Shown: positions 2,208 to 38,533, counted from the first letter of the stretch. The stretch: DNA of 64,000 bases from a virus (IMGVR_UViG_3300010396_000003:1-64000), one strand, 5' to 3'. The notes: generated from the sequence alone by a model not told the origin. Translations and numbers: made by a program.

Positions 2208-2915
2208 TCAGGAAGGAACACCCTCTAATATTTTAGTTTGTGCCGTGAGAGCCGCTTCCTTTTCTTTCTTCCAGAATTCTACGATTGCAGGAACTGCCTC
2301 GGGACGGGTAAAGCCGGGGTGCGGCCAAAACTCTACTTCGGTATTCATTACCAAGATGCGGAAGTCGTTCGCAAAAAGTTCGGAAATTGAAGCATGCCAG
2401 GTTCCGGGACCATAATACTTTGGAGGATTGAATCCGCGAAGCTTGCAGTAATCGCCATATACTGTTTTCTCTGCTTCTTCGTTTCCATCCTTTTCTTTGC
2501 GGACGGATTTTGCGATGTATTGTTTAACTACATGTCCATATTCATGAGCAACTAAATAGCGGGTCATTGCCGGATGTGGCGGGATTCGTTTCCCTTGCAA
2601 GACGATATAGGGCATCCATGGATATTCCCGGTCTTTCGATTCAACTTTATAGTTATATTCGAATCCAGTGTGACCATTCGTGCGAGACTCATTTTCTCTA
2701 TGCAACACACAGATGGTTACGTCTCTATCGATTGGAAATGTAGCAACACATCGGTCAGATTCTACCCGGACAACGTCCAGGTTATGTGCATAGCACGGAG
2801 TGGGATCAACAACTTCGCTATGTCCGTAGCTTCCTACTGGCAATCTGAAATAGGGTTTACCGTCGAACGGCCAAATCAAATCTTCGGAGCAATGTTCGGT
2901 TATCTTAATCTTCAT
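2208..2915 (-). CDS. putative zinc metallopeptidase (HExxH)
   Basis: VAHEYGHVV HExxH motif in a 235-aa protein. Family (ImmA/SprT-like or other) not resolvable by eye. Confidence 0.45.
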   Translation of the reverse strand: MKIKITEHCSEDLIWPFDGKPYFRLPVGSYGHSEVVDPTPCYAHNLDVVRVESDRCVATFPIDRDVTICVLHRENESRTNGHTGFEYNYKVESKDREYPWMPYIVLQGKRIPPHPAMTRYLVAHEYGHVVKQYIAKSVRKEKDGNEEAEKTVYGDYCKLRGFNPPKYYGPGTWHASISELFANDFRILVMNTEVEFWPHPGFTRPEAVPAIVEFWKKEKEAALTAQTKILEGVPS

Positions 2916-3502
2916 TATTCATTTCTCGCGGATTGTACTGATATTTCTGCTTCAGATTCGAGGGCGGCAACGTGTTCCTGCACCTGGTCGAAACGATTAA
3001 ATGGAATTCCAATAAGGATCCAGATTTTTTTTGGTGGCGGCATTGTATCAATCGTATCCATTCGTTTGTCGCTAGTAGGATCGGCTAACAGTTCCGCGAG
3101 CTCGTCTGGATTCCAGAACTCCGTTAGATCAAGTTCAGAATCTTTAAGAGATTCAACATCCCAGGTTAGATCAACCTCGTTTGTCCTATTGTCGGCTATC
3201 GCCAGTCTCTTTGCGCGCTTGTCATTTGCATTTAAATCTGTGCGCTTTACGGCAACAAGCTCATCACCCTGTGTTTCGACAACAATAACTTTTTTATATC
3301 CCTGCGATTTTGCTGCATCGAGAGTCTTGTTTCCGCCGAGCGCCACCTGATTCTGATCAACAACAATCGATCTGCCGGCACCAAGCTCTCGAATCGACTT
3401 TTCGAGCATGGTTCGGCCGCGCTTATTACCCTTATTGGTATTCTTCTGGTCAGGCTTTATGTCACCGATCGGAATAACGGTCACTTTTGGCGTGTCGCTC
3501 AT
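2915..3502 (-). CDS. ParB-like nuclease domain protein
   Basis: N-terminal IPIGDIKPD...EKSIRELGAGRSIVVD...ALGGNKTLDAA resembles the ParB/Srx N-terminal domain. ATGA overlap with the upstream gene. Confidence 0.45.
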   Translation of the reverse strand: MSDTPKVTVIPIGDIKPDQKNTNKGNKRGRTMLEKSIRELGAGRSIVVDQNQVALGGNKTLDAAKSQGYKKVIVVETQGDELVAVKRTDLNANDKRAKRLAIADNRTNEVDLTWDVESLKDSELDLTEFWNPDELAELLADPTSDKRMDTIDTMPPPKKIWILIGIPFNRFDQVQEHVAALESEAEISVQSARNE

Positions 3503-3910: not shown

Positions 3911-4243
3911 TTATTCGTTACTTATAGAAACCAATATATCCCCGTGACAGGATTGATGTGGAAAACACCAACATCCCAATACTTTACCGCGGAGCTCTTT
4001 CTTGGCGTCGGCTCTAAATTTTCCCTGTTCTGGGCGCATAATCCACTCACGATATTTCTCAATTACTTGTTCTCGCGTGCCATCTGTTCCAATCTTAAAT
4101 TGATTACCCCACTTCGAGGGACGACCGATATAGATATCAAACTTCTCTTGCTTGCAATGAACAACCCGCGGAGCGCCAATGCGGCGCAATTCCGCTTTCT
4201 GTAAGAGGCGTTTCTCACGTTCATCCACAAATAGGGTTGTCAT
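3911..4243 (-). CDS. DUF4326 family protein
   Basis: GNQF...VLGCWCFPHQSCHGDILV matches the DUF4326 signature (CWC.P..CH.D.L). Paralog at 54282-54602. Confidence 0.55.
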   Translation of the reverse strand: MTTLFVDEREKRLLQKAELRRIGAPRVVHCKQEKFDIYIGRPSKWGNQFKIGTDGTREQVIEKYREWIMRPEQGKFRADAKKELRGKVLGCWCFPHQSCHGDILVSISNE

Positions 4244-4952: not shown

Positions 4953-5286
4953 TTAAATTATCAGGATCGGTCAGCCAAGCATAACGTCCATCAGCATAGT
5001 TCCCCCAATGTTCTTCCCGCTCAGAAATCGAGCTCCGCACTTCCTCGGTTCGTCTACAACTAATTAATTTAGAGATACAAACGACCGCACCATACGGCAT
5101 TGGGCGCGGAAGCCAAATATCTGAATCGATTACCGCCGCATCTTCTCGCGTAATCCGGCGCTTTGCTGCATGAATAGCGATATAACCACGAACCATCGTG
5201 GACCAATGACGTGTTTCGTTCACTTTAATCTTGAGGGACATTGCGGTTGCCCATGGCTGCCACAATGAAATACACGGTATCTTCAA
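4828..5286 (-). CDS. ASCH/PUA-like domain protein
   Basis: N-terminal ISLWQPWATAM...GYIAIHAAK resembles ASCH domain proteins. Confidence 0.4.
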   Translation of the reverse strand: MKIPCISLWQPWATAMSLKIKVNETRHWSTMVRGYIAIHAAKRRITREDAAVIDSDIWLPRPMPYGAVVCISKLISCRRTEEVRSSISEREEHWGNYADGRYAWLTDPDNLIELSEPIPLRGRQGIFSWEVPEQYAKIIRERDENRSIQIPA

Positions 5287-5708
5287 AATGGCTCGCTATC
5301 TTCCGCGATGAAAACTCGGATATCCACGCCTGGATTCTTCCGGTATCTCTTTGTAATCGTTGCAACTGCAATCTGCGCATCGTCTCTATAGCAAATTCCA
5401 GTTAAGGCGTCGCCGATCGACCTAACCAGTTTGTCGTAATCAGGCTTTGTGTCTTTATATGGATTAGTTTTCCGATTACTCTTGGGGCGCTGAAAATAAA
5501 AATCGCATTCAAGGATTACAGGGCCGGAATCAACCATTTCAGCTCCAGCTTTTTGCATGGCTTCTTGCGCCATCCAAGCGACTTCTTGCCGCCACGGCTT
5601 TAATCTATTACTGACGTCAAGCATGATTGGCTTTCCGGTTCTATAGTTGAGCATTACTTTTTTCGATCCCTGCGGAACTGGAATCCCAAGAACAGAAAAT
5701 GCAATCAT
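5283..5708 (-). CDS. rusA: RusA-family Holliday junction resolvase
   Basis: LGIPVPQGSKK N-terminal motif and PDYDKLVRSIGDALTGICYRDDAQI catalytic region typical of RusA; 141 aa. Confidence 0.8.
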   Translation of the reverse strand: MIAFSVLGIPVPQGSKKVMLNYRTGKPIMLDVSNRLKPWRQEVAWMAQEAMQKAGAEMVDSGPVILECDFYFQRPKSNRKTNPYKDTKPDYDKLVRSIGDALTGICYRDDAQIAVATITKRYRKNPGVDIRVFIAEDSEPF

Positions 5709-6435: not shown

Positions 6436-8226
6436 CTAAAATAGCGTATCGGAAAGTTTAATTTGACCTTGCCCTACAACTTCTACCACCTTACGCGCGA
6501 CCAAACGGCTTATATATGCGTCACGCGAAGAACGTTTGTATCCGGTTTCTTCATCCAAACCTTCGCGGTCGACCGGAGAATTGCCGTATCGAAGCAAACA
6601 TTCTAATATTTTCTTTTCACCAAGTGGCAGTTTTCTTAGCCAATAATCACGCAGGTCTTCACCTGATGGTAGTGGTTCGTAGTCAGAACCGAGGGCGTCA
6701 ACGCCTTCCTGGGTTGGCAGGATAAGTGAACCATTTAAGCGTACATAGGATTTTGTAATCAAACGGCTCACATAAGCATCCCGACTGGAACGTTTATAAC
6801 CGGTAAGCACCGAAAGCTGATCGCGATCCACACCGTCCGGATATTGGGCAGCGGCTATTAGAATGGCTCGCTCACCGACCGGAATATCGCCATTACCATT
6901 AGACGTGGATGGCCGTAAGGCTATATGCGGTCGCTTTGGCTCTGGCGTGACCGTAAAAGGCTCATTTCGCCTTACTTCGACGTTTACCTCCATATCCGAC
7001 AGAAGTGGCTTTATTTTGGCTATTAGGCGGTCTGCCTCGCGTTTAAAGCGTTCCAACTCCTCAGATCGCTTCCGAAAGCTGTTTTCAGCCATTATCGATA
7101 TCCTTTTGGCTGTTTCTTCCAGGGCGCGCTTGATTTCGTCGGGTTGAATCGGCGAGTTATCGAAACCAACGGCATTGATCTTAACAAGGACTTTCACAAC
7201 ATCCTCCAGTAATTTTTCAAAGCTGGAGATTTGTTTTTTGAGTTTTAGGGTATCGCCAGAAGACGTAGCCGCTACGGGTATGTGGCGAATCTGTTGTTTA
7301 AGATCCGCAATTTCACGGCGCAATTCCTTTTCTGTTCTCGCCTTTTCCTCTGCTGTTTTTGGAAGGTCTGCCAATTTCGGCAAAAGAGCCTTAATCTCGT
7401 CCGGCGCCGGCGGAGGCTCAATCGCATATTTCATGGCTTCCTGTCCGTGCGGCGTTGTGATCTCGCCAATTTTTACCAGAATACGCTCGCGCGATATCGC
7501 GCGCCCGAGAGCAAAGAAGTTTCCAGGATCGAGCAACTGGATCTCTTTGTAAAATTCAGCCATTTCATCCTTAGGAACACTCAACTCATCTGCCGCGCGT
7601 TTCCGGTTAATCGTCTCAAATGTGGGACCGATAAGACGATTTAAGAGCATGCTGCTGGCATCTTTACTGAGTGACGCTAAGCGTTGCGTGGCAAAACAGG
7701 GAACGAGCATGCGCTTGCGGCCGCGCGTACAAAGCGCAGTCATGGAATCGATGGCTATCGAATCGCCCTTACCTTTTTCGGGGCAAAACATATGTGCTTC
7801 GTCTACGATAACTAAACACGGCTTCCAGAGACTTTTGGGCGTTTCAACTAATCCCTCGAGAAACAACTTCACCCATTCATGGCGCAGGGATGGTTTAAGT
7901 TCCGAGATATCGCAGATACAAGACGCATGGAGTTCACGCAGGCGCAGTGCGAGCAATGCAGCGGACCGCGGATGGATTTCTGTCTCGCCACCTTTGCCTG
8001 CGGTAGCAAGAACAAAGTCAAACTTCTCCCGCATCGGGGCGAATTCACCCTCAGGATCAATCACGATAATGCGGATTTTATCGAACGCCTGTTCGATGAT
8101 CCGTTTAAGCAAAACCGTCTTACCGCCGCCAGAATCTGCTGTAACCAACAAGCGCGTGGCGAGCAACGTTGTAATGTCGATCGCCACGTTCTTGTGGTTG
8201 TGCTTACCTATAACAATTTGACTCAT
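6436..8226 (-). CDS. HerA/FtsK-like P-loop ATPase with C-terminal tandem winged-helix repeats
   Basis: Walker A TADSGGGKTVLLKR and Walker B LVIVDEAHMF with the IIVIDPEGEF motif of DUF87/HerA-like ATPases. Central coiled coil. Two C-terminal about 65-aa repeats, each TGYKRSSRDAY(V/I)SRL, with a matching intragenic DNA repeat. Confidence 0.55.
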   Translation of the reverse strand: MSQIVIGKHNHKNVAIDITTLLATRLLVTADSGGGKTVLLKRIIEQAFDKIRIIVIDPEGEFAPMREKFDFVLATAGKGGETEIHPRSAALLALRLRELHASCICDISELKPSLRHEWVKLFLEGLVETPKSLWKPCLVIVDEAHMFCPEKGKGDSIAIDSMTALCTRGRKRMLVPCFATQRLASLSKDASSMLLNRLIGPTFETINRKRAADELSVPKDEMAEFYKEIQLLDPGNFFALGRAISRERILVKIGEITTPHGQEAMKYAIEPPPAPDEIKALLPKLADLPKTAEEKARTEKELRREIADLKQQIRHIPVAATSSGDTLKLKKQISSFEKLLEDVVKVLVKINAVGFDNSPIQPDEIKRALEETAKRISIMAENSFRKRSEELERFKREADRLIAKIKPLLSDMEVNVEVRRNEPFTVTPEPKRPHIALRPSTSNGNGDIPVGERAILIAAAQYPDGVDRDQLSVLTGYKRSSRDAYVSRLITKSYVRLNGSLILPTQEGVDALGSDYEPLPSGEDLRDYWLRKLPLGEKKILECLLRYGNSPVDREGLDEETGYKRSSRDAYISRLVARKVVEVVGQGQIKLSDTLF

Positions 8227-9342: not shown

Positions 9343-9517
9343 CTTTTCCCTCCTCGTTTTTACAATTTTTACATTCCAGATTTTCGTTGATAAAAGGAGT
9401 TGTGCTCACGCTGAAACCCATTACAGCACCCAAGTTGACTAACTGCTTAGCGTGTTTAACACAAGCTATCGTGTCGTTCCCTGGCCAGTGGACTACGTAC
9501 ATCGTTTCGCCGCTCAT
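9305..9517 (-). CDS. hypothetical small protein
   Basis: 70-aa ORF with CKNCKNEEG. Confidence 0.25.
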   Translation of the reverse strand: MSGETMYVVHWPGNDTIACVKHAKQLVNLGAVMGFSVSTTPFINENLECKNCKNEEGKDGRSKSGLQGNT

Positions 9518-10248
9518 TTCCTTTTTGTCCTAACCGACTCTTTTGATTTCGGATGGACTTCGATTCCACCAACAATCGATACAGCATCCTTTCCGAGCCT
9601 ATCTACAATCGGTTTGATCTTTTTTTCGTCCGGTGAGAGAAACTCCTTCTTTACAAGTTTTGGATTAGTGATTACAAAGATCCAGCTTCTGCGCAGCGAT
9701 ATGCCAGCCTGCTTTGGAACAGAGCTCTGAACCATTATTGGAGGCGGCGGTGCAGATGCGGCTTGTTCAAGGACGATATCGGCCGCTTCATGCTCGCCGG
9801 CTGCGGCCAATTCGGCAGCCTCTGTCATGGCTTGCGCTTCCTGCGCTTCTTTGGCGAGCCGTTGTTCTTCATCACGGCGTTCCTGATCTTCCTTTTCGCA
9901 TTTCTGACGCCAAGCCTCTCGGCGCTCCTGTAGAAGGAGGTCGGCCTGTTCGTAAGGGCGCAACAGAATTGAACGTATTCCGGTGAGGAACTTGTGAACC
10001 TTATTGGCCGCTTCGATCGGTTCATCTATGCCGCGCTTTACCTCATTCTTCCTAGTGGCAATGATAGTCATGAGTGAACCACTCGCCTCATAATCATCAT
10101 TTGAATTGATCTGTAAATCCTTCGCTTGTGCGAGCGCAACCAGCGATTCAGATAGCGACTTTTGGATCTTCCCGGCGTCATACGTCGGCGCCATTGGCGG
10201 CGCTTCTGGTATAGCGACCAAATCTTTCTGTTCTGTATCTGTAGTCAT
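9514..10248 (-). CDS. hypothetical acidic coiled-coil protein
   Basis: 244 aa with a Glu/Arg/Ala-rich helical segment. Immediately upstream of the SPFH gene and translationally coupled to it. Confidence 0.4.
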   Translation of the reverse strand: MTTDTEQKDLVAIPEAPPMAPTYDAGKIQKSLSESLVALAQAKDLQINSNDDYEASGSLMTIIATRKNEVKRGIDEPIEAANKVHKFLTGIRSILLRPYEQADLLLQERREAWRQKCEKEDQERRDEEQRLAKEAQEAQAMTEAAELAAAGEHEAADIVLEQAASAPPPPIMVQSSVPKQAGISLRRSWIFVITNPKLVKKEFLSPDEKKIKPIVDRLGKDAVSIVGGIEVHPKSKESVRTKRK

Positions 10249-11207
10249 TAACGTCCCTGTCCGGCGGTCATTGTCTTGTCTGGTTCTATAGTTTGGGTGG
10301 CGACAACATTACCAACTGTAATTGCGTTACGAATTTCCGACAGGAACCCTTGTATCGCATTCGGAGAATGCGGCAAAAGAATGGTGTTGCTGTGATTGCT
10401 GCCGGCAATTTTTGCCAGAGTGTCAAAGTATTGTGTCAATACAACCATTGCCACCGCATCTTGCGGGTCAGAGTGGGTGGCATTAGCAAGATCCTCTACC
10501 GACTTGCGCAAACCCTCGATAATCGCTTGGCGTTCTCCAGCGATACCTTCACCCTGTAGAATTTTCGACTGTTTCTCCGCTTCTGCTTCCGCTACTAATT
10601 TGATCCGGTTTGCTTCACCTTGAGCCTTTGCAGCTTGCTGGCTCCGCTGCGCCGCCTGAACGGCATTCATTGCTTCCTTAACATCAACACTTGGAATTAC
10701 GTCTTTTATGAGCGTCTTGACGACCTCGTAGCCATAGTTTTCCATTTGATCGTTCAACGCCTTCGTAATATCGCCTCCCACTTGCGACTGTTGAGAATAG
10801 ACTTCATCGAGGTTCAGCGACGGCAAATGTCCAAGAATCGTGTTGTATGCAAGCGACGCCATTTGCTTTGTTGGTTCGGATATGTTGTAAAAAGCCTCCA
10901 TTGCTTTGGCCGGAAGAATCTTGTACTGAATGGACAGCGGCATTGAGATAAAAGTACCATCCTTCGTTTTTGCCTCAACGTTTGTATCGAACTGTTGAAC
11001 CTTAAGACTTAACCTGGCAACAACTTTATCAGTGAATGGATTTTTGAAGTTTAGTCCGGATGTGGCTACACACTTGAACTTTCCGAAGCGCTGGACAATT
11101 GCCGCACTCGCCTGCTCAACAGTAAAGAAACTATTGAATGCGACAATCAAAACAAAGATGCAAAGGATAGCCAATCCGAATAAACCGAAAATTCCAGTAG
11201 CGCTCAT
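10248..11207 (-). CDS. SPFH/band-7 (stomatin/prohibitin/HflKC-like) membrane protein
   Basis: N-terminal TM helix, SPFH core (IVQRFGKF...) and a C-terminal AQGEANRIKLVAEAEAEKQSKILQGEGIAGERQAI coiled coil typical of band-7 proteins. Confidence 0.75.
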   Translation of the reverse strand: MSATGIFGLFGLAILCIFVLIVAFNSFFTVEQASAAIVQRFGKFKCVATSGLNFKNPFTDKVVARLSLKVQQFDTNVEAKTKDGTFISMPLSIQYKILPAKAMEAFYNISEPTKQMASLAYNTILGHLPSLNLDEVYSQQSQVGGDITKALNDQMENYGYEVVKTLIKDVIPSVDVKEAMNAVQAAQRSQQAAKAQGEANRIKLVAEAEAEKQSKILQGEGIAGERQAIIEGLRKSVEDLANATHSDPQDAVAMVVLTQYFDTLAKIAGSNHSNTILLPHSPNAIQGFLSEIRNAITVGNVVATQTIEPDKTMTAGQGR

Positions 11208-11216
11208 ATCTTCTCC

Positions 11217-11858
11217 TTAGAGTCCTTTAAGGCTCATACTGTGATTCATTTTCCAGGTTGTGATGTGTAAAGCAGACCCAAAGACACTATAATCATGTTT
11301 GTCTTCAAAATCTTTTTTCTTGTATGTTCCATTGTCCAAAAGCTGGACGGCAACTCGCCGGCGCTTCATAAACCTACTAATTGGCGATGTTTCTCGGCCA
11401 TCAAATTCAGGCAATCCAAGCGCATATCCGGCAAGTTGGATCGCAACCCACGGCTGAATAATGACCGTTGTCTTGATATCGATGATGGCTTCATCGTTGT
11501 TGAAAAATCCTTCGCGGTCGATCCGCATGCCGTAATGCATTCCGTTGTACGTCGCAAAATGTTGACATTCGATGCGACGCGGCTTAAAGCCAGTATCTTC
11601 ACGAAACTTAATCCATCCCTCGAGTCGCCACTTGGCATCATCTGGAACCGAATCAAAATCAAGCGTACCTTCATCGTAATAATGCGTTGCCAGATGAACC
11701 GAATGCCCAAATCGCGACTTCTTTTCGAGAATGTCTTCACGAATACCATCGTAAGAAACGAGTCCAGAGTGATCAAGGCACCTAGTAACCGCCGGTATCT
11801 CAATTGATCCCCGATAGTAACGATGCGTCGCTTCATCAAATGAAAATCTTTCCGTCAA
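11217..11858 (-). CDS. PD-(D/E)XK nuclease (YqaJ/Cas4/RecB-like exonuclease)
   Basis: MRIDREGFFNNDEAIIDIKTT carries the D...E/D-x-K core. Confidence 0.45.
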   Translation of the reverse strand: MTERFSFDEATHRYYRGSIEIPAVTRCLDHSGLVSYDGIREDILEKKSRFGHSVHLATHYYDEGTLDFDSVPDDAKWRLEGWIKFREDTGFKPRRIECQHFATYNGMHYGMRIDREGFFNNDEAIIDIKTTVIIQPWVAIQLAGYALGLPEFDGRETSPISRFMKRRRVAVQLLDNGTYKKKDFEDKHDYSVFGSALHITTWKMNHSMSLKGL

Positions 11859-12466
11859 GCAGCAACCTTTGTCTCGTTAGCTGTAGCCAAAAATGACTTT
11901 TCGTCGGTTTCGAGTGCCAACTTCTGAGCAATCGCCCAGTCTTCTGCCGGCAAACTGTAGGTGTGCGGCGGGTGAATACAGAAATAGGATTCGATGTTTC
12001 GTGTTGATCGATTCAAACGCTCGACTCGCGCACCCGGCCGAACGCGGTAGAGCCGGTCGCCAACCTGTAATTCAAATGCATTGTCCTTTTCGAATTGCTT
12101 GTTCTGTTCCTCGGTTAGCAACGAACAGAGCAAAGACCGCGCGCGCTTTCGCGCTTCTTCGCGCTTCTTTTCCTCTTCCGCAATCTTCTGTTTTTCTTCC
12201 GGCGTCAATTCACGCGGTACTTTTAAATTGTATGTGCCGGACGCAAATACCCACTGCTCCAGATAGGATTGATAAGAAACGTTTGTCATAACCGTTATGG
12301 TTGCGGCCGTTCCTGTCTGGATATATTGAATGTAGGGATCGTAGGTGTAATTCCCCGTCGTGTAGTTACCCATCTGGTAAAGCATCCCAAATTGATTCAC
12401 GGAACTCATTGTGGCGGCCACCCCTCCGGATCGGACGGGACATACATTTCTTTTGCGACAACGCAT
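11855..12466 (-). CDS. hypothetical protein
   Basis: 203-aa ORF with a coiled-coil patch (EEKQKIAEEEKKREEARKRA). Confidence 0.35.
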   Translation of the reverse strand: MRCRKRNVCPVRSGGVAATMSSVNQFGMLYQMGNYTTGNYTYDPYIQYIQTGTAATITVMTNVSYQSYLEQWVFASGTYNLKVPRELTPEEKQKIAEEEKKREEARKRARSLLCSLLTEEQNKQFEKDNAFELQVGDRLYRVRPGARVERLNRSTRNIESYFCIHPPHTYSLPAEDWAIAQKLALETDEKSFLATANETKVAA

Positions 12467-13013: not shown

Positions 13014-14129
13014 TTACTGCCGTCCACCCGATTGAATTTCACTAAGGATGGATGCCAATTGAGATTTTTTGAGATCCTTCGGTTCGGAAACCTTGTGGTT
13101 TTGTTTGAGGTATTTTGTTACCTCATCCTTCTTCCAGCCGGCAGCAAATGATCTGTCCCAAAAATCCTTAATATCGGCTGGCAGAAGATATGGATCCTTG
13201 TCGCCGGTCAAAGTCTGTTCCTGGACCTGGGTCTGTACCTGTGGCTGTATTTCCGGTTCTTTTTGTGGCTGAATATTGATCGTTTCCGGTTCAACTTGGG
13301 TCTGTGCTTGTTGTTCCTCTTTATGTTCCGGAACCCGATCAGTCACGCGGCGTACTTCGGTAGGCACGGCTTGATGAATCGCGTCATTACCTTCGATATC
13401 GTCTCGTTCTTCGTAACGAGAAACAATTTCGGAGAGCTGTTGGAGTTTGCGACTCTTTGCAGGAAGGCGCTTTGCCAATTTGCGGATTGCGGATATCGTC
13501 CAGCCGCTTTCCCAAAAGGTTGTCCACTTATCGCTATTTGGTTGTTTTGAGCAGTTACGGCGCCGACCAATTTCCTCGAAATCAAGGTATTCATAATCGA
13601 TCGTTCCATCCATGAATTCAATTAGCGCGTATGCTCCGATTGCCGTTGGGCGCTTGCGCTCACCGTTGCCTGGCTGGTGATACAGAATTTTGCGGGGTGC
13701 AAGGTGGCGCTGAAAAGTATCGCTCTGATAGACAACTTCTGCCGTAAAGAGTTTAACGTCGCCGGTCTCATATGCTTTTTGGACGTAATACTTATAGGAT
13801 GGTTGAAACTGCGCCTGGGTGCCGTACTTGATAAGCCAGCCCATTCCAAGCGATGGATGTAGTGGGCAATCCGCCTCGGCGGCTTCAAATGCTGCAAGTA
13901 GGACACTGTTGGGATCGCAATCCGCCAGACTGCTTCCCGGTTTGCTGTTGGCAACCGATTTCTGGATAGCGGTCGTCAAACCAATCACAAATCGATTGGC
14001 CGCTTCCTCTTTAACCTCGCCTTCGCGCCGGGGGATACGATCCAAAAACTTTTCCTTCTGTCCGCCGATAAACTCGATCATGGTCTTGACTGGTTTGACG
14101 ATAGATTGTTGCTGTGCGGGAGCGGTCAT
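13014..14129 (-). CDS. RecT-like single-strand annealing protein
   Basis: CDPNSVLLAAFEAAEADCPLHPSLGMGWLIKYG...QFQPSYKYYVQKAYETG resembles the RecT core. Low-complexity Q/E/P-rich C-terminus. Confidence 0.5.
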   Translation of the reverse strand: MTAPAQQQSIVKPVKTMIEFIGGQKEKFLDRIPRREGEVKEEAANRFVIGLTTAIQKSVANSKPGSSLADCDPNSVLLAAFEAAEADCPLHPSLGMGWLIKYGTQAQFQPSYKYYVQKAYETGDVKLFTAEVVYQSDTFQRHLAPRKILYHQPGNGERKRPTAIGAYALIEFMDGTIDYEYLDFEEIGRRRNCSKQPNSDKWTTFWESGWTISAIRKLAKRLPAKSRKLQQLSEIVSRYEERDDIEGNDAIHQAVPTEVRRVTDRVPEHKEEQQAQTQVEPETINIQPQKEPEIQPQVQTQVQEQTLTGDKDPYLLPADIKDFWDRSFAAGWKKDEVTKYLKQNHKVSEPKDLKKSQLASILSEIQSGGRQ

Positions 14130-14680: not shown

Positions 14681-14708
14681 AATATACAGGAACGCTTTTT
14701 TGTGTCAA
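14681..14708 (-). promoter_or_regulatory. sigma70-type promoter for the minus-strand RHH operon (TTGACA-16nt-TATATT), nearly leaderless
   Basis: Reverse complement of 14703-14708 is TTGACA, then a 16-nt spacer, then reverse complement of 14681-14686 is TATATT. The ATG of the RHH ORF lies about 13 nt after the -10. Confidence 0.5.
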
Positions 14709-14980: not shown

Positions 14981-15352
14981 ATGCGCTACGTTTCGTTGTT
15001 AGCTGTGCTCTTGATGTTGGGACCAATCGCTTCGGCAAAACCACACTGGTATTCCAGTAAAAGATTTTGGATTGCCCTTGGTATTCAGACTGCGGCAATG
15101 TCGGCAGATTACGCGGAATCACAGCATGCATTTCACCATGGCGCTATTGAGGCTGATCCGCTATTTGGTGAACGGCAGCCGAGCTTTGGAAGGATGTTTT
15201 CTATCGGATTGCCAATTGAAGTTGGCTATGCTTATGCGGATTACAAATTATCCGTTTCTAAACATAAGCTACTGCGTATTATTTCGCCGGCGCCAACTCT
15301 CTATCAGGTCGAAGAACATTCTTATTTGGCGGCAAAGGCAGCCAGTTATTGA
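14981..15352 (+). CDS. secreted hypothetical protein (signal peptide)
   Basis: Only plus-strand gene in the first 44 kb. N-terminal LLAVLLMLGPIASAKP signal peptide with its own promoter and RBS, so it looks like a moron-type accessory gene. Confidence 0.5.
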   Translation: MRYVSLLAVLLMLGPIASAKPHWYSSKRFWIALGIQTAAMSADYAESQHAFHHGAIEADPLFGERQPSFGRMFSIGLPIEVGYAYADYKLSVSKHKLLRIISPAPTLYQVEEHSYLAAKAASY

Positions 15353-20684: not shown

Positions 20685-22232
20685 CTAATTAGCCAAAATA
20701 GGTAACACTTGTAAGGTGGAGGTGGTAAATCCCTGTGGGTCGTTTTTTAGAATTAGTGCGCCTGATGTTCCATTCGTCGAACAACGAAGAGTGAAGGTTA
20801 TATTAGCTCCAGCCGAATAAGTTACAGTGGAAAAACCTCCACCACCGCCGTTTTGGGTACCAACTGTGGTTGTACTCAAATTAGATGTGTGCGATAGTGC
20901 AAAATTATTAGTTCCGTCAGATACTGCGCAACTAACCTGTTGAAACGAAGCATTGTTAACTTCCACCGGCATCCAGTATCTAACATCAGCACGATATGGC
21001 CCCCCAGTGCCTGGAAATGTAACTCCGACACTAAGGATCGTTGTCGTACCGCTAATCGTCACGTTACTGGCAAGAGTTGCGGAGGCTAGTGTGGGTGTAT
21101 AACCAGCTCCTGTATTCGTCACTGTTTGATTGGGCCAAGTTCCTGTGACAGAAATTCCAGTTCCCGCTACCAAACCTGGGCTCGCTGTTCCCGTGCCACC
21201 GTTGGCTACGGATACGGGCGTCGACAATGCCACCGTTTGGTTTGGAAACGATCCTGAGACTCCGATACCAGTTCCCGCAACTAATGACGGAGACGCTGTG
21301 CCGGTTCCACCGTTTGCCACAGAAACTGGCGTAGAGAGTGCCACCGTTTGGTTTGGAAACGATCCGCTTAGCGATATTCCGGTTCCCGCCACCAAGGAAG
21401 GCGTCGCTGTGCCGGTTCCACCATTTGCCACAGAAACTGGCGTAGAGAGCGCCACCGTTTGGTTCGGAAACAATCCTGAGACCACGATTCCCGTTCCACC
21501 AACCAAACTTGGAGACGCTGTGCCCGTGCCGCCATTCGCCACGGATACAGGAGTAGATAAAGAAACGGTCTGATTTGGAAACGATCCGCTTACGCCGATT
21601 CCAGTGCCAGCCACCAGAGCCGGAGATGCTGTTCCGGTCCCACCGTAAGCAACGGCAAGAGGTGAAGAAAGAGTTAGAGACGTAAAAGAAGGCGATGCGA
21701 CCACCGCAACCGTCTGCGTCGGCCACGATCCCGTTACGGAGATATTCGAACCGGCGACAATCCCGCCACTACTTCCGCCAGCAGTACCGCGAGAAAGCTC
21801 AATCCATATAGAACCCTTAAGAAGTAATTCAAGACTAAATGCCGTCGAGCAATTAAACGTGCCGTTAAGCGAAAGATTCGTGCCACTACTTAGAGTTGTA
21901 TTCGTGTCGCCACACAGAAAGTGGATTACTTGCCCTTGAAAGCCGCCCGTAAAATTCGTGATCGCCGTAGCACCTGTATTCGCTGTAACCCAATTTGAAT
22001 AATTTGCAACCGATGGCGTCGGCGAATTGACAGTCAGTGTAGAAAATCCGCCGATAAGCGTATCCAACAGATTGTTGAAGTTATATTGCAGACACGCTCC
22101 CCAATTCGTCGTCGCCTGGAGAACCGGAACTTCAAACCCTACGTTCGTGGAACTGGTACACGTCTGTTGTGCTGACGCGCGCCCCGCACCGAATAAGAGC
22201 GCTAAAATAAAAATGAACATAAATTTCTTCAT
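20685..22232 (-). CDS. tandem-repeat beta-rich protein with Sec signal peptide (tail fibre/adhesin-like)
   Basis: Start reassigned to MKKFMFIFILALLFGAGRASA (GAGGA RBS 7 nt upstream; the supplied ORF extends to 22316). Five copies of a 37-aa repeat ALSTPVSVANGGTGTASPSLVAGTGIGVSGSFPNQTV. Confidence 0.5.
   Translation of the reverse strand: MKKFMFIFILALLFGAGRASAQQTCTSSTNVGFEVPVLQATTNWGACLQYNFNNLLDTLIGGFSTLTVNSPTPSVANYSNWVTANTGATAITNFTGGFQGQVIHFLCGDTNTTLSSGTNLSLNGTFNCSTAFSLELLLKGSIWIELSRGTAGGSSGGIVAGSNISVTGSWPTQTVAVVASPSFTSLTLSSPLAVAYGGTGTASPALVAGTGIGVSGSFPNQTVSLSTPVSVANGGTGTASPSLVGGTGIVVSGLFPNQTVALSTPVSVANGGTGTATPSLVAGTGISLSGSFPNQTVALSTPVSVANGGTGTASPSLVAGTGIGVSGSFPNQTVALSTPVSVANGGTGTASPGLVAGTGISVTGTWPNQTVTNTGAGYTPTLASATLASNVTISGTTTILSVGVTFPGTGGPYRADVRYWMPVEVNNASFQQVSCAVSDGTNNFALSHTSNLSTTTVGTQNGGGGGFSTVTYSAGANITFTLRCSTNGTSGALILKNDPQGFTTSTLQVLPILAN
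21130..21705 (-). repeat. five tandem 111-nt direct repeats inside gene 20685-22232
   Basis: Visible as near-identical DNA blocks. They generate the spurious alternate-frame ORFs 21064-21726 and 21130-21573. Confidence 0.7.
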
Positions 22233-22240
22233 TATTATCC

Positions 22241-23383
22241 TCATAGCAGAATAGACCTGAAAGTAACCTTGGAAATACTCCATAACTGATAAAGGGATTG
22301 TTCGGTTCCGTCCCAAGAATCAGTATTAAACCTGCAACGCTGATAGAACGTAAAATCAGCGGTGATTGGTTGTGCTGCCGGTGGCGCCCCGGCAAAAGTT
22401 ATAAGACCGTTAGGAAAAGATTGATCTGTCGTCGTCTGATTATAACCACTAGGGGAAGACCAACGTTCTAATTGCGCGCCCCAAGATTGAACGGTGACAG
22501 CCGAAGAAGCAGGTGGCTGTCTAATCATTCCAGTCATAATAGAATTTGGGAAACTATCTGTTGTCATTGTCACACTAAACCGCGACCATATACCAGAAAG
22601 ATTACATACGACTACGGATGATTGCGCAAATAAATCCCCTATCTGTATTTCAACGTTTGCTGTTCCGGATGCCACTCGAAGCCAAATTGAAAACGTATAC
22701 GTGGTATTCGATTCACTTGAAGTTGATTGGTAAATATAAGATGTCTGTGAACCACTTGTAGAAGGAAAAGAAATTGTAGCTGCGGTTGTAGTTCCATTTG
22801 GAGCTACGGCCGCATTATTTGTAACAACCGGATTAGAAGATGAACCTGTATTTCCAAGAATCCATACAGCAGGATTATCAAAAACTTCCGAATAAAGAAA
22901 AAGATTTTCTACTCCAAGATTCCATTGTTGTCCGGATGTTTGCGGCGCTTGGGGTATCGAGATACCGTTAATATAAACATTTGATGGGAATCCAAACTGA
23001 ATTAAATCTTGCATCCCATAACTGGTATTACGGACAAGTTGAAATTGACGATTTGAGCCGTCGCCGTAACCCAGAAGCTGACCGATACAACTTGAATCGT
23101 AAGGATCCTGGTATAGCCAGCTATTTGCCGCTCCTTGCATTTTTCCAAAAAATCCGACCAACTTCTGTATCGCCGAACTCGTTTGTGATGCCGTCCAATC
23201 GCCTTTAGCGTAAGGAATATCGACTTCATACATCCAAATCGGGAATTGCATTAGAGCAATACGGACTTCACCGCGCTCGTCGGATGGTGTTTGAACGAGC
23301 GATTTATAGACAGGATATTTTTTCACGGGAAAGGCAAGTGCCCAATTCCCTGGATCCTGTGAAGGGAAGATTATATTGCTCAT
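22241..23383 (-). CDS. distal tail protein (Dit/gp12-like position)
   Basis: 380-aa protein immediately after the tape measure gene (ATGA overlap). Confidence 0.4.
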   Translation of the reverse strand: MSNIIFPSQDPGNWALAFPVKKYPVYKSLVQTPSDERGEVRIALMQFPIWMYEVDIPYAKGDWTASQTSSAIQKLVGFFGKMQGAANSWLYQDPYDSSCIGQLLGYGDGSNRQFQLVRNTSYGMQDLIQFGFPSNVYINGISIPQAPQTSGQQWNLGVENLFLYSEVFDNPAVWILGNTGSSSNPVVTNNAAVAPNGTTTAATISFPSTSGSQTSYIYQSTSSESNTTYTFSIWLRVASGTANVEIQIGDLFAQSSVVVCNLSGIWSRFSVTMTTDSFPNSIMTGMIRQPPASSAVTVQSWGAQLERWSSPSGYNQTTTDQSFPNGLITFAGAPPAAQPITADFTFYQRCRFNTDSWDGTEQSLYQLWSISKVTFRSILL

Positions 23384-34311: not shown

Positions 34312-35547
34312 TTATTTCGCACCAATGCCAACAGTTTTTTCGACAACACCCATTGGATCGATAAGTACTTTATTTTCATAATTAAGAGTTTTGTATTCCA
34401 GCCACGCGGTCGCGATAACAATTACTGGACTTATTAAAACCTCGGCAAGTGAATGGGAATGTGGTGCCTGTGGATCGTGCGTCTTAACGGTATACCCCAT
34501 GCCCATTAGTAATTCTTTGAGTTTTAATCCTGGAGATTCTTCTGTTACTGGCGTGTTCGGCTTATAGCTTTGACCAAGAATTCCGATTGTACCGAAATTT
34601 CTGTAGTTACATTTGTTTTGGATTTCGGCTGCAATCGAATAAATTAATGCTTCATTTAGATCGTCGGTTGCTACAGAAAGCAACGGAGCTGTCAATCCTC
34701 GAGCCGTATACTGAAAAAGGCGATTGTCTCGCGGCAAACATGGACCTCCGTATGGCATTCCAAAACGCAAACAAGAACGCCCTACGCGTCGATCAGATCC
34801 GACCGCGTCCAAGACTACGTGTGGATTCGCGCCTAACTTCCTAGCAAGTGCCCCGACCTGGTTGGCAAAGCTAATTTTTGTCGTAAGGGCACAATTAACA
34901 GAGATCTTCGCCAGTTCAGCTTCGATCAATGTCATTACTTTGTATCCCTCTTGAACCTTGTAATTCATCCCACGCTCATATAATTCTGTTGTTAGATCCG
35001 CTGCTTTTTTGCTCGACACACCGAACAAACCGAAGTCTGGATATTGGAGATTATCGATAACACTTCCGAGAGCAATGAATTCAGGCTTATACACCAAGTG
35101 AAATGGAAGTTCCTGCATCGCTTCGCGCAATAATGGCAGAAAAACCTTCTCACAAGATCCAGGTGTGACCGTAGAATTGATGATAAAAACATAGTCAGAA
35201 ATACGGCGCGCATAGACCTCATGCGCAACAGATTTCATGGCTACAATTAGATATTCGTTGGAAAAACTGCCATCGGCAAGACTTGGTGTGAGGGTTATAA
35301 AGCAGCAAGCTTCTGTACCGCGGATAGCATCGAGGACTTGAGCTGTGGCGCGAAGGGTTCTGCCGTGCGTTTTCTTTATTAGACGTTCAAGACCCGGTTC
35401 TTGAACGGGAGCCCTACCGGTGTTAATTGCCAGTACTTTTGTTTCGTCAAGATCGAGGCCAACTACATTAACGTCATTTGCAGCAAATAACGCCGCAATG
35501 GGGCTACCCAACTTCCCCAAACCACATACACAAATGTTTTTGATCAC
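34312..35547 (-). CDS. UDP-glucose/GDP-mannose 6-dehydrogenase family (nucleotide-sugar dehydrogenase)
   Basis: N-terminal Rossmann ICVCGLGKLGSPIAALFA, catalytic GMPYGGPCLPRD (compare GGSCFPKD), 411 aa. Confidence 0.8.
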   Translation of the reverse strand: MIKNICVCGLGKLGSPIAALFAANDVNVVGLDLDETKVLAINTGRAPVQEPGLERLIKKTHGRTLRATAQVLDAIRGTEACCFITLTPSLADGSFSNEYLIVAMKSVAHEVYARRISDYVFIINSTVTPGSCEKVFLPLLREAMQELPFHLVYKPEFIALGSVIDNLQYPDFGLFGVSSKKAADLTTELYERGMNYKVQEGYKVMTLIEAELAKISVNCALTTKISFANQVGALARKLGANPHVVLDAVGSDRRVGRSCLRFGMPYGGPCLPRDNRLFQYTARGLTAPLLSVATDDLNEALIYSIAAEIQNKCNYRNFGTIGILGQSYKPNTPVTEESPGLKLKELLMGMGYTVKTHDPQAPHSHSLAEVLISPVIVIATAWLEYKTLNYENKVLIDPMGVVEKTVGIGAK

Positions 35548-35583
35548 GCACTACAGATACACAAAACGGTGAACCGATGATAA

Positions 35584-36315
35584 TTATTTTTTGTGGGGGC
35601 AATCTTCCCAGTGATAAGATTCGTTTCCAAGTGCCATGTCAATTAGATACCACGTTCCGTCTTTTGCTTTAGCAAAATCAATAGACCAATAATCTCCTAG
35701 TTCGGCGCCGGCTGCTTCAGCCAATGGCGTCAAAAAACTAATTTCTTCTTCCGGCTCATTGTTTAGAATAGCCAGTCGTTCTTTCCACGTTCCTTTGGTA
35801 CCTGGTTCGAATATCATCGGCTGCCCGTTAAAGACTTCTTCCGGCCAATAGGGATGATGACATTCAATTTTCCCGTTGCGGACAAAATAACGACGCTCGC
35901 GATTGATGGGCATTTCACCACGGAAGGCTTTAAATGAAATCTCGAGATCCAGGAATTCGCGGAATACAATTGCTTCATACGGCAAACCGAACAGACCTGC
36001 CAACTCATGGAATTCAAGAAGGGATACTAGGTTTTTGCTCAGTACATTCATATTGGGAACATAGCAAGTATTTTTCCACGAGTGTTTTTCTGACGACAAA
36101 TCGGTTCGAAGAAAAAGAGGGAAGCCAAATTTATCCGCCTCTTTCATGAGGTCACTAACAAGACCAGTAAAGTACGGACATTCATCCCCATCGAAAATCG
36201 GAAACACCTTCTCGCGATCTATCGGGATAATTTTCGTCCGCGGGACAGGAATGCCAAGCTTTGATACGCGCGGAAACCAATAGGTAAGGCTAGTTTTGTA
36301 TGGTTTAGAAGGCAT
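35584..36315 (-). CDS. ATP-grasp-like protein
   Basis: FPLFLRTD...EAIVFREFL...YWSIDFAKAKDGTWYLIDMALGNE resembles ATP-grasp motifs. Start set to the internal Met to limit overlap. Confidence 0.3.
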   Translation of the reverse strand: MPSKPYKTSLTYWFPRVSKLGIPVPRTKIIPIDREKVFPIFDGDECPYFTGLVSDLMKEADKFGFPLFLRTDLSSEKHSWKNTCYVPNMNVLSKNLVSLLEFHELAGLFGLPYEAIVFREFLDLEISFKAFRGEMPINRERRYFVRNGKIECHHPYWPEEVFNGQPMIFEPGTKGTWKERLAILNNEPEEEISFLTPLAEAAGAELGDYWSIDFAKAKDGTWYLIDMALGNESYHWEDCPHKK

Positions 36316-37141
36316 GTCCACACTGATTACAACGGCGCATGCCACCAGCCATCCCGAGGGCGCCACTACCGCATTTCGGACAAGCCTTCTTGGATATAGG
36401 GCCGGATGCATGCGCTATCACCGGTTGACCACTAAGCTGCACCGGTGAATGGTCTTTCGATGTGCGGAAGTAATAGAAATACATCGGTTCGTTGATATAA
36501 TGCTCCGATCGCACAACCTTCAATGTTCGAAGTTCATTCGCCCAACGCGCATCTTCGCCATGTCCGCCCGACATTTTTACTTTTAGCGCGAGCTCTGTCT
36601 TTATCGGATTTACATGGGATAGATCGCGATAGTATGCACTGTCGTCTTCTGACCACTTTGTATATTTCAGCGAATGGTAGGTTGGTTTCTGTTTATTTCC
36701 ATCGATAAATAACTGAATGTTGTAGCCGATGTAGTCGACTCCATCGAGTAACGGATAAATTTTAGAGAAATAATCATCGGCAACGATATCGTCATCATCG
36801 ATAAAAACACTATATTCACCCTTGGCTTGCTCGCGGAGTTGCTGACGGTTCGTACCGAGGTCCATTGATTCATCAAAAATACGGGTCAAGACTTCGACAT
36901 GATAATTTCCGTTACCGATTTGCTGTGTTAGAGAAGACATCAGTCGAGAGAGATATGGTGCGCGTGATGGTTGCGTAAGAATCATCACGGTAAGCTTTGG
37001 ACCGGTGATTTTCGGAGTTTCGATTGAATCCAAAGGCTTCGAGTCTTTCTTTACATCTTCCTCGGGTGTGGCGACTATGGGAGTTCCTTCGCGCACCACA
37101 ACATCAACCTTTGGAAGTGGATCTTTCTTTTTCTCGCTCAT
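36305..37141 (-). CDS. GT2-like glycosyltransferase with C-terminal zinc ribbon
   Basis: MILTQPSRAPYL and the acidic EYSVFIDDDDIVADD DxD stretch. C-terminal CPKCGSG...CNQCGH. Confidence 0.5.
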   Translation of the reverse strand: MSEKKKDPLPKVDVVVREGTPIVATPEEDVKKDSKPLDSIETPKITGPKLTVMILTQPSRAPYLSRLMSSLTQQIGNGNYHVEVLTRIFDESMDLGTNRQQLREQAKGEYSVFIDDDDIVADDYFSKIYPLLDGVDYIGYNIQLFIDGNKQKPTYHSLKYTKWSEDDSAYYRDLSHVNPIKTELALKVKMSGGHGEDARWANELRTLKVVRSEHYINEPMYFYYFRTSKDHSPVQLSGQPVIAHASGPISKKACPKCGSGALGMAGGMRRCNQCGHAF

Positions 37142-37818
37142 GTGTTCTCCATGACTGCTCGTAGTTTTTCGATTGCAGCCTCACGTTCCGGCCGCAATTT
37201 TTCATAAAGCAAATCGGGTCGATCTTTCATATGCCGATCAATGCGTTCCTGGTACGTTTGATCGCATTCCGATCTGCCAAACCAAAAGTGTAAATGATCG
37301 ACAATAATCGGCAAGCATTTTCTTCTATTTAATGCATTCGCGCAATCATTTAGAAATGTATCACCGTAATCGCTCGAAAACCAAGGCGCAATAAAGAAAC
37401 CAACAACGTCCGCCCAGCGTCTATGGACAAAACCGTGTGCGCCAAAATCTTTGTAATAGCCGCCGCTGTCGTATGGATGTGTAAACCAGATTTTATCTGA
37501 AGTTTGGGAGTAGAAATTCTCAACAATGATATCCCACCCATATGTTCGATAAACAACATCATCGTTTGACTGCTGCCATATATCTCCAGTGGCAATCTCA
37601 GCGCATTTATTCCAACAATCGCTCAACGTAATTCTCGGCCCAATAATCTTCTTAACTGCAAGTTGATCAGCCATAGCCGCACTTTCCGTATCATCGTTAT
37701 CGATGTATAGAATTATCTCAATTGGTTTCGATGAGGTAAGCCAAACCGATTCAATCATCCGTTGGAGGATTAGCGGTCGCTTACGCGTTGGCAGAAGTAC
37801 GCTGATCATATGCATCAT
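37138..37818 (-). CDS. glycosyltransferase (GT-A fold)
   Basis: ISVLLPTRKRPLIL and IILYIDNDD motifs. Confidence 0.45.
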   Translation of the reverse strand: MMHMISVLLPTRKRPLILQRMIESVWLTSSKPIEIILYIDNDDTESAAMADQLAVKKIIGPRITLSDCWNKCAEIATGDIWQQSNDDVVYRTYGWDIIVENFYSQTSDKIWFTHPYDSGGYYKDFGAHGFVHRRWADVVGFFIAPWFSSDYGDTFLNDCANALNRRKCLPIIVDHLHFWFGRSECDQTYQERIDRHMKDRPDLLYEKLRPEREAAIEKLRAVMENT

Positions 37819-38533
37819 TCTTCATAAAAAGATTGAAATCAAATTCACGGATAACGCTCCACTCCGGGAGCAAAGAAAGCAATTCGGGACGCTCTGCTTG
37901 CCCGTCATACAATGCCTTTTCTTCTGCTTCAATGAACAAATAACGTGCGTGACGCAATGCTTTCTGTCCGCCAGTTATCATTTGGTTCTCGGCACCCTGG
38001 ATATCCACCCACAATAAATCGATCCGCGGCAACGCATATGCATTAAATAGATAATCCAATGTAAAGCATGGGATACCACCGGGAATCGGCCGAAAATCAT
38101 ACCATGGATTTTTTTCAAGATGTCTGGTCGGCATTCGAACGGAACCGGATCCGCGCCCTTCTGGTGTGTAGCATGCCCAAAAATCGCAATTACCGTTACG
38201 ATCAGATATGGCGCCGTAGAGATGACGTCCAGGAATATGCCTGTCGGCTATTCTGCGGTAATTATCTGGATCCGCTTCAACGGTAACAATAATTGGACTT
38301 TTATCTCTGACCGCTTGAAACATCCACTCGGTGTCTTCTCCACAATATGCTCCCAATTCAACAATACAGGGCGCGACTGGACATGAATTTAAAACACTCA
38401 GAACCGCACGCTGTTCATCTGCACTCGCCATATCTACTCCGGTCTCTGAAATACGGCTACACCAACCAATGACGGAAACACTAAATGATGCCAATTCCTT
38501 TGAGATGCAAAACCGGGATACAAACCGGGACAT
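37781..38533 (-). CDS. FkbM-family methyltransferase
   Basis: IVELGAYCGEDTEWM...IVTVEADPDNYRRI resembles FkbM-domain MTases. Confidence 0.45.
   Translation of the reverse strand: MSRFVSRFCISKELASFSVSVIGWCSRISETGVDMASADEQRAVLSVLNSCPVAPCIVELGAYCGEDTEWMFQAVRDKSPIIVTVEADPDNYRRIADRHIPGRHLYGAISDRNGNCDFWACYTPEGRGSGSVRMPTRHLEKNPWYDFRPIPGGIPCFTLDYLFNAYALPRIDLLWVDIQGAENQMITGGQKALRHARYLFIEAEEKALYDGQAERPELLSLLPEWSVIREFDFNLFMKNDAYDQRTSANA

Follow-up and report, generated by a model that had tools for sequence, protein, structure and literature searches.

A HerA-clade ATPase joined to two tandem winged-helix domains with co-varying recognition helices in a large family of phage proteins

Introduction

What might a phage gain from an ATPase of the HerA type that carries its own pair of winged-helix (wHTH) domains? 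The question is raised by a gene at 6436..8226 on the minus strand of a 64,000-nucleotide stretch of viral DNA (IMGVR_UViG_3300010396_000003:1-64000), referred to here as the window. A preliminary description of the gene proposed a HerA/FtsK-like ATPase fused to a coiled coil and two winged-helix repeats, located in a replication/recombination module. It left the function between a DNA translocase or loader with sequence-specific DNA binding and an NTPase of a defense or anti-defense system. Here, the protein is described by profile searches, structure prediction, and fold search, and its relatives are used to examine what the winged helices recognize and which process the motor could serve.

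Results

The N-Terminal Region Is a HerA-Clade ATPase Core

The gene is a 596-aa open reading frame with an ATG start and a stop codon at 6436-6438; all of its features given below lie on the minus strand. Full-length relatives, at 42-56% identity, align across 100% of the 596-aa protein, and this end-to-end alignment supports the assigned start codon. A second 596-aa ORF at 61671-63461 was considered as a sign of a duplicated or circularized window and was dismissed, since its product is unrelated to the present protein and the offset in the DNA does not fit. Residues 1-260 (7447..8226) form an ATPase core belonging to the HerA clade of the FtsK-HerA superfamily, and each of the three motifs named in the preliminary description lies where it had been placed. 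The Walker A motif (P-loop) DSGGGKT occupies aa 31-37 (8116..8136), with G33, G35, and K36 invariant among 66 diverse relatives. It is followed by the DPEGEF motif at aa 57-62 (8041-8058) and by Walker B, VIVDEAHMF, at aa 139-147 (7786..7812), in which D142 and E143 are invariant in the same 66 proteins. A further block, RGRKRM...ATQRLASLS (aa 168-187; 7666..7725), was located from its invariant columns and from alignment to 9x1l, where it matches EGRKFG...SQRPSRLS of Thermococcus HerA. Its R170, K171, and T180 are invariant across the 66 relatives and Q181 and R182 nearly so, and the block may represent the arginine-finger and sensor region. In three relatives, a LAGLIDADG intein is inserted directly after Walker B (DEAHxF|C...), a position that fits a conserved, functionally important active site. 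Just past the core lies a family-specific segment, IKALLPKLADLPKTAEEKARTE (aa 278-299; 7330..7395), recognized by its near-invariant columns; in the 66 relatives L282, P283, L285, D287, L288, P289, A292, and E293 are nearly invariant.

The assignment to the DUF87/HerA type was borne out by two lines of evidence. The Pfam DUF87/HerA central domain matches aa 5-110 with 43.5 bits (E 5e-11; cut-off 23.2), and the top Foldseek matches of the core are HerA-NurA with dsDNA and SIR2-HerA. The closest solved structures also include the DUF4297-HerA, DndH, and TdpA defense ATPases, and all fold matches of the motor are translocases, secretion ATPases, or defense HerA proteins. The motor resembles HerA more than FtsK, and the FtsK-type alpha/beta motor is not its closest fold. 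HerA proper is built from three parts: a HAS domain, an ATPase domain, and a helical bundle (PMC11514289). The window protein has the RecA-like core with Walker A, Walker B, and the GRK...QR block; the N-terminal HAS barrel is absent from its AlphaFold2 model, in which the P-loop is reached already at aa 31-37, and no inserted helical bundle of the HerA kind could be identified. Because it lacks the HAS barrel, the protein is described as having a HerA-clade core and not as an orthodox HerA.

A Helical Stalk and a Disordered Tether Lead to Two MarR-Type Winged Helices

The AlphaFold2 model, built on 66 relatives, has a mean pLDDT of 89. The ATPase core is compact in the model and starts almost at the N-terminus. 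The coiled coil of the preliminary description corresponds to long helices predicted at aa 288-315, 325-344, and 362-409, which are read here as a probable coiled-coil or stalk region (aa 288-409; 7000..7365, from the AlphaFold2 secondary structure). These helices vary in sequence and length among the family, and their consensus is mostly "x". A disordered tether (aa 412-444; 6895..6993), with pLDDT <50 at 412-423 and 425-444, separates them from winged-helix domain 1 (aa 445-512; 6691..6894). A connector helix (aa 513-531; 6634-6690) then joins this domain to winged-helix domain 2 (aa 532-596; 6439..6633), which was delimited from structure models, repeat BLASTP, and fold search. Both domains are of the MarR type. 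When the C-terminal 156 aa were modeled separately, they gave a confident single rigid unit (pLDDT 94.5, pTM 0.84).

The best structural matches of the C-terminal region are DNA-bound regulators. For the tandem unit, the fold search found no two-domain analogue in the PDB. Pfam MarR gave no match to the isolated C-terminus of the window protein and only faint ones to its relatives. MarR regulators homodimerize via terminal helices, whereas the phage protein is without these helices and has its two domains fused in tandem. A Rep-type iteron initiator (RepA/RepE/pi, with WH1-WH2) was also considered and rejected; the structure is unlike Rep, and no iterons were found in or beside the gene in the window. 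An architecture of ATPase, long helices, and two tandem winged helices is supported by profile, structure prediction, and fold search alike, and the model, with its predicted wHTH repeats, is neither that of a standard terminase large subunit (TerL) nor that of a DnaB-like helicase, the two outcomes against which the original proposal had been set.

The Two Recognition Helices Are Matched within Each Protein

Repeat 1 and repeat 2 share 49% identity over 53 aa (BLASTP, E 4e-15). The two C-terminal repeats described earlier are real, with units of ~65 aa as stated; their register is 86 aa (258 nt) and not the length of the unit. The accompanying DNA duplication, given as about 6500-6560 versus 6740-6800, was measured as 45 nt with 76% identity at 6502-6546 versus 6760-6804, in close agreement. 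Both 45-nt copies encode exactly TGYKRSSRDAY(I/V)SRL, with 14 of the 15 residues identical, and span the turn and recognition helix of each domain: TGYKRSSRDAYVSRL in wHTH1 (aa 475-489; copy 1, 6760..6804) and TGYKRSSRDAYISRL in wHTH2 (aa 561-575; copy 2, 6502..6546).

Exactly two wHTH repeats are present in 139 of 139 non-identical full-length relatives. Inspection of the C-termini of ~150 relatives revealed that the turn/recognition-helix motif varies between proteins and is repeated inside each one; examples, each occurring twice per protein, are YKRSSRDAY (the window), SSSYGNNLG, SSTFEKY, and SKHVDN. Among 125 proteins, 110 variants of the recognition motif were counted. The co-varying segment was defined as columns 31-43 of the repeat profile, which cover the turn together with the first (N-terminal) half of the recognition helix; helix 1 also co-varies at its start, and R, K, S, T, N, Y, and G are frequent at the co-varying positions. 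Over columns 31-43, identity between repeat 1 and repeat 2 is 81% within one protein and ~30% between proteins, and at most of these columns the repeats are equal in 87-98% of cases within a protein versus 16-37% between proteins. One thousand partner shuffles of the same columns gave 0.296 ± 0.016, with a maximum of 0.346, against the observed 0.81. In the remainder of the wHTH domain, within-protein identity is 36% (0.36), near the between-protein value.

The wHTH duplication is old, since at several columns a repeat resembles its ortholog in another protein more than it resembles the other repeat of its own chain. Where the segment has the same residue in both repeats, 661 of 1245 codon pairs (53%) use differing codons, as do 6 of 10 in the window. 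Since more than half of the pairs differ, the codon usage speaks for protein-level selection, and against recent gene conversion, as what keeps the recognition helices alike. The simplest reading of this pattern is that both wHTH domains contact one and the same ligand, which would differ from phage to phage, and we infer that this ligand is a short, phage-specific DNA word present in two copies. The co-variation lends independent support to the translocase or loader with sequence-specific DNA binding that the preliminary description had put forward.

Searches for a Proposed Cognate DNA Word

A DNA word read by the tandem unit was sought by six approaches, all of which were negative in the window and within ±10 kb of each related locus. 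When the gene and the window were scanned for direct, inverted, and tandem repeats, no iterons appeared in or beside the gene, and a permissive word-cluster scan returned noise only. The searches in relatives covered ±10 kb per locus, and distant or degenerate sites lie outside their reach. Across that range, no 9-12-mers recurred among loci of one recognition-helix class, Markov-corrected over-representation of 7- and 8-mers gave no class-specific word, and five recognition-helix classes yielded no class-specific 10-mers. Non-coding short-period arrays were not enriched beside the gene at 145 loci.

The missing word is one of three observations that would suit a different kind of ligand for the tandem winged helices, such as a dimeric protein of host or phage, an RNA, or a DNA structure, through which the motor would be recruited. 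Winged helices also act as protein-binding modules, as in the kleisin-interacting tandem-WH proteins, and the tandem unit is without a two-domain analogue in the PDB. Against this, the positions that co-vary are the classical DNA-contacting elements of MarR-type domains, and DNA-bound regulators are the best structural matches. We therefore give a ligand other than a DNA word little weight.

Family Size and Distribution

A word-indexed search returned 1,582 relatives, the best 120 of which are mostly full-length at 42-56% identity. A profile was also run exhaustively against 1.84 billion cluster representatives, and 4,241 clusters (50% identity) matched at E<=1e-30. The gene is carried by 221 IMG/VR viral contigs, and species-representative genomes contained 250 matched stretches in Acidobacteriota (the closest), Nitrospirota, Gemmatimonadota, Proteobacteria, Bacteroidota, Planctomycetota, Chloroflexota, Patescibacteria, and some DPANN archaeal bins. 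The prophages or phage contigs with family members are binned with Acidobacteriota, Proteobacteria, Bacteroidota, Planctomycetota, Chloroflexota, Patescibacteria, and DPANN archaea. Two of the genomes that contain a homolog are those of Nannocystis exedens DSM 71 and Anatilimnocola sp. NA78 (loci L137 and L140). The phage collection searched contained no cultured phage with the HerA-wHTH gene; it yielded only three unannotated gut "Bacteriophage sp." records, which match the ATPase part alone. The matches in plasmid records were all paralogs of the ATPase domain followed by different C-termini, and searches of the literature turned up no specific account of a phage HerA-wHTH protein. The combination, though uncharacterized, is not rare: related proteins form over 4,000 sequence clusters, and the earlier view of it as unusual does not hold. 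Stand-alone tandem-wHTH proteins were considered as evidence for domain shuffling and set aside, the long-contig cases examined being remnants beside IS elements or cases where the ATPase part of the gene had not been called.

Genomic Setting in the Window and in Relatives

In the window, the gene lies inside a long co-directional early block that starts at a promoter-like site at 14708-14681. This site heads the block and is the best sigma-70-like match (TTGACA-16-TATATT, 11/12; 14681..14708, minus strand), recognized by consensus match alone. The upper part of the block encodes a MUG113/T5orf172 protein, RecT (13014-14129), two exonuclease-like proteins (11217-11858 and 9514-10248), an SPFH protein, a phrog_1029 protein, and the HerA-wHTH protein. 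The lower part encodes a MazG-like protein, RusA (5283-5708), a DUF4326 protein, an HTH protein, a ParB-like protein (2915-3502), and an HNH endonuclease. RecT, RusA, and the exonuclease-like and ParB-like proteins confirm the replication/recombination setting claimed at the outset. No other helicase, primase, or initiator was recognized in the portion of the block inside the window.

Related loci place the gene in varied company. It is preceded by SSB, PrimPol, and DnaB_C in locus L002, by RNR, SNF2, and PolA in the L039 group, and by Rad52 and an SNF2-methylase in L001, whereas L003 has a Rep_1 gene downstream of it. The co-occurrence of complete, unrelated replication modules argues against a universal replicative helicase, and the sequence-specific targeting proposed above argues against a generic branch-migration motor. 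Neighbors are usually packed tightly, with a median gap to the upstream gene of -4 nt, and are co-directional in ~79% (upstream) and ~76% (downstream) of cases. Clustering by BLAST and HMM of the ORFs from 163 loci identified no conserved partner gene, no neighbor family being found in more than 24 of 153 loci, and at four loci the proteins encoded directly on either side of the gene did not align between loci. The commonest neighbors, each in at most 24 of the 153 loci, are DNA methyltransferases, SNF2 helicases, HNH endonucleases, ParB-like proteins, DUF5131 proteins, and integrases. Across these 153 loci, a pathway is not pointed to by any conserved partner gene. Contig starts fall just upstream of the gene above chance (within 2 kb at 21 of 80 loci); they were considered as a genome terminus and discounted, since they reflect, at least in part, assembly breakage at coding low-complexity tandem repeats in neighboring genes.

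Alternative Roles Weighed against the Genomic Context

The PHROG label of the protein is "terminase large subunit", and tailless viruses use packaging ATPases of the FtsK-HerA type; both would suit a genome-packaging ATPase or a terminase substitute. Canonical TerL, however, shares contigs with the gene (Terminase_6N/6C in L002, TerL_ATPase and a nuclease in L003). It lies 0.8-6 kb downstream of the HerA-wHTH gene in at least 14 loci, often clustered with TerS and an HK97-type portal. The protein itself has no nuclease domain and no Terminase Pfam match, and the window encodes tailed-phage-type capsid and tail proteins. The co-occurring TerL and the absent nuclease domain led us to reject a terminase identity; the PHROG label is unsupported, and a role in packaging is very improbable.

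Proximity to the terminase genes is relevant to another proposal, an ATP-dependent transcription regulator (a late-gene activator or switch) whose wHTH pair would sit on a two-half-site operator while the ATPase acts in regulation or remodeling. The HerA-wHTH gene often closes the run of large early genes ahead of TerS/TerL, the MarR-type fold is dominated by transcription factors, and enhancer-binding ATPases offer an analogy; phage-specific operator recognition would likewise give co-varying recognition helices. In the window, however, no terminase or late operon was found within ~16 kb downstream of the gene. The fold matches include no HerA/FtsK-type ATPase activator, and the invariant catalytic residues, together with the inteins at Walker B, suggest a working motor and not a sensor. 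Regulation of transcription is accordingly considered an unlikely function.

The second function raised in the preliminary description was a defense or anti-defense NTPase; here it would sense foreign or self DNA, exclude superinfecting phage, or counter host HerA-based immunity. The motor's nearest solved structures include SIR2-HerA, DUF4297-HerA, DndH, and TdpA, and the neighborhoods are rich in DNA methyltransferases. PADLOC also gave matches to mad8 (E ~1e-12) and HerA models, but these were partial and weak, of a generic HerA-core kind (the best, mad8, E 1.2e-12, over aa 4-193), and the neighboring genes gave none. The NCBIfam equivalogs score far below their cut-offs (29.9 bits versus 970 for helicase_HerA; 19.5 versus 800 for HerA_antiphage). 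The HAS domain, which serves HerA complexes as the effector- or NurA-binding platform, is absent from the phage protein. No NurA, Sir2, or DUF4297 Pfam family occurs in any annotated neighborhood, and no effector (Sir2, nuclease, NurA) adjoins the gene in any annotated context. Finally, the gene lies within a tightly packed, co-directional early operon and not in a moron-like island. The defense proposal thus found no support, and we consider it improbable.

Discussion

The phage protein shares parts of its design with several known systems and coincides with none of them. Its motor resembles that of HerA, which acts as the end-resection motor of archaeal HerA-NurA and in the bacterial SIR2-HerA and DUF4297-HerA systems; the phage protein adds a C-terminal stalk, a tether, and two wHTH domains, a combination that is carried by no described HerA. 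A motor guided by a DNA-reading C-terminus is familiar from FtsK, which loads at KOPS (PMC3130261). FtsK and SpoIIIE read KOPS or SRS with one gamma winged helix, whereas the phage protein has two wHTH domains per chain. Their specificity is conserved, whereas the recognition segment of the phage family is hypervariable between phages. FtsK, SpoIIIE, and TraB also have an N-terminal membrane domain and a long linker, whereas the phage protein opens directly with the ATPase core.

A closer parallel in specificity is offered by Streptomyces TraB, since TraB C-termini recognize plasmid-specific 8-bp direct repeats in clt, each plasmid's TraB reading its own (PMC4447253). This element-specific reading of repeats parallels the phage-specific recognition helices described here. 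TraB is otherwise FtsK-like, membrane-associated, and used for cell-to-cell transfer, whereas the phage protein comes from a tailed phage and is without an N-terminal extension; and the clt repeats are known, whereas none were found for the phage protein in the window or within ±10 kb per locus. Among replication proteins, the initiator-helicases (SV40 large T, papillomavirus E1, P4 alpha) fuse an origin-binding domain to a hexameric SF3/AAA+ helicase, and their origins carry recognizable repeats near the gene. Like the phage protein as proposed here, they are encoded in a replication module and join, in a single chain, a ring NTPase to a domain that binds specific DNA sequences. They differ from it in the motor, which is SF3/AAA+ there and of the HerA type here, and in the near-gene repeats, none of which were found here.

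Considering these comparisons, we hold it somewhat better than an even chance that the protein is a ring-forming, ATP-driven DNA motor of the HerA clade, tethered to a two-wHTH pseudo-dimer that reads a phage-specific DNA word. Most likely, it would act in the replication, recombination, or maturation of phage DNA, as a DNA translocase or helicase guided by sequence. In such a protein, the stalk and flexible tether would join a HerA-type ring, presumably hexameric, to a covalent pseudo-dimer of MarR-like winged helices. The wHTH pair would bind its cognate words where these stand paired or repeated in the genome of its own phage, and this docking would concentrate or orient assembly of the ATPase ring on the adjacent duplex. 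ATP hydrolysis would then drive translocation or unwinding, by which phage DNA could be remodeled between replication or recombination and packaging. In one variant, the motor would open or load at an origin-like site; in another, it would sweep along or process concatemeric or branched DNA after replication. Such a motor would follow FtsK at KOPS or TraB at clt in its logic, but with a HerA-type core.

Between these variants our division is rough. Slightly over a third of our expectation goes to recognition of an origin or loading site, slightly under a third to FtsK-like processing or segregation of replicated DNA, and the remaining share, of the same size as the first, to other roles. For the window, an origin or loading role has the appeal that the early block there shows no other replication motor; processing of replicated DNA appeals for those relatives in which full replication modules co-occur. 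A more specific and more tentative idea, to which we assign about one chance in four, is that the family forms a widespread, so far unrecognized class of HerA-type pumps directed at the phage's own DNA, for which a private word would serve as a phage KOPS or clt in loading and directional movement. Such pumps could clear host proteins or defense complexes from the genome, orient the processing of concatemers, or segregate replicating genomes.

The family is very large and has neither a characterized member nor a cultured-phage representative in the collection searched. In it, the design of a ring pump plus a DNA-word reader, known from FtsK and TraB, would have been built independently on a HerA core in tailed phages. 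The strict co-variation of the recognition helices offers an experimental handle, as helix swaps should re-target the motor, and the more than 100 natural recognition-helix variants form a ready-made specificity series. The target word would reveal which step of phage DNA metabolism needs a self-recognizing motor. If the protein is indeed a motor directed at the phage's own DNA, the co-varying helices would constitute a natural protein-DNA specificity code with thousands of variants, and the pump would serve a step not yet described in tailed-phage biology.

Homing endonuclease-like insert in the ATPase of a relative

Three relatives of the HerA-wHTH protein (P0059, P0261, and P0300) carry inserts of ~340–380 aa within the ATPase, immediately behind Walker B, where the inserted segment begins with C and ends with GN between flanking DEAHTF and SPEKG sequences. 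When mapped to the window protein, the insertion point falls at aa 147/148 (nt about 7783–7788), the inserts themselves being a property of these relatives and not of the window. The insert in P0059 matches a LAGLIDADG homing endonuclease in Pfam (PF14528). Those in P0261 and P0300 are similar to it in size and occupy the identical profile position; the Pfam match on record is that of P0059.

Genes and repeats surrounding the ATPase in related loci

Related phages frequently encode proteins in which a long low-complexity stretch of (A-R/L/W-D-A)n repeats precedes a DUF6745 domain, with examples at L004:605–2242, L055:3583–5178, L022:3713–5014, L094:5478–6554, and L111:14465–15556, among others. 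In most loci they are encoded on the upstream side of the HerA-wHTH gene, and in L111 on its downstream side. Tandem DNA repeats of these genes lie at many contig starts and probably account for the assembly breaks 1–5 kb upstream of the HerA-wHTH gene.

A second class of repeat was found in a few of the related loci. In L082, arrays of an AAGTGNG heptamer are scattered over at least six sites (1629–1669, 1978–2060, 3939–3957, 6467–6560, 12021–12048, and 15178–15272), and every array is oriented like the genes. The three arrays that were compared with ORF calls are mostly intergenic. Numerous AGCTNNN-type heptamer arrays were present in L061 and L111. Heptamer arrays of either type are missing from the window and from most loci, and no evident connection was seen between them and the wHTH motif.

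Other features of the window and its leftward extension

The 652-aa ORF at window 40753–42711 resembles the major capsid protein of Arthrobacter phage Mufasa8, and neither TerL nor portal was recognized among the window ORFs scanned. A 152-kb contig with the identical protein (L086) extends leftwards past the left edge of the window, and the added sequence (L086:11833–20646) encodes an AAA ATPase, DUF3150 and DUF6011 proteins, and a Ku homologue. Two sugar-metabolism genes, a UDP-glucose dehydrogenase-like gene (34312–35547) and a glycosyltransferase-like gene (38936–39964), separate the capsid-like gene from the tail genes (window 34312–39964); such content is unusual for a structural block. 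A 111-nt unit is repeated in 4.4 copies (74% matches) at window 21154–21646, inside a 543-aa ORF (20685–22316), and this region lies between the putative capsid gene and a 1210-aa tail gene. Three copies of CAATCAACA in non-coding sequence at window 57047–57100, upstream of an HNH gene (56264–56998), may constitute an operator. A second 596-aa ORF, at window 61671–63461, has a C-terminal OmpA domain and is unrelated to the HerA-wHTH protein, the equal length being coincidental. A 152-kb contig with the identical protein (L086) extends leftwards past the left edge of the window, and the added sequence (L086:11833–20646) encodes an AAA ATPase, DUF3150 and DUF6011 proteins, and a Ku homologue.

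Paralogs of the ATPase domain

The recombination operon of the window includes a gene for an SPFH/Band-7 protein (10248–11207), with the HerA-wHTH gene ~2 kb downstream of it. On a Bosea plasmid, an SPFH gene (L167:12165–13127) likewise lies ~2 kb from an ATPase-domain paralog, and it adjoins exonuclease and PD-(D/E)XK/UvrD genes. A further paralog of the ATPase core, of 484 aa and with 38% identity over aa 2–273, is encoded on a Sphingobium chromid (L169:8995–10449). There it adjoins ppc and glcB in surroundings that look housekeeping, a description that applies to the L169 neighborhood, and the match is shared by ~20 other Sphingobium records. The 484-aa Sphingobium protein looks like a cellular relative of the ATPase core.
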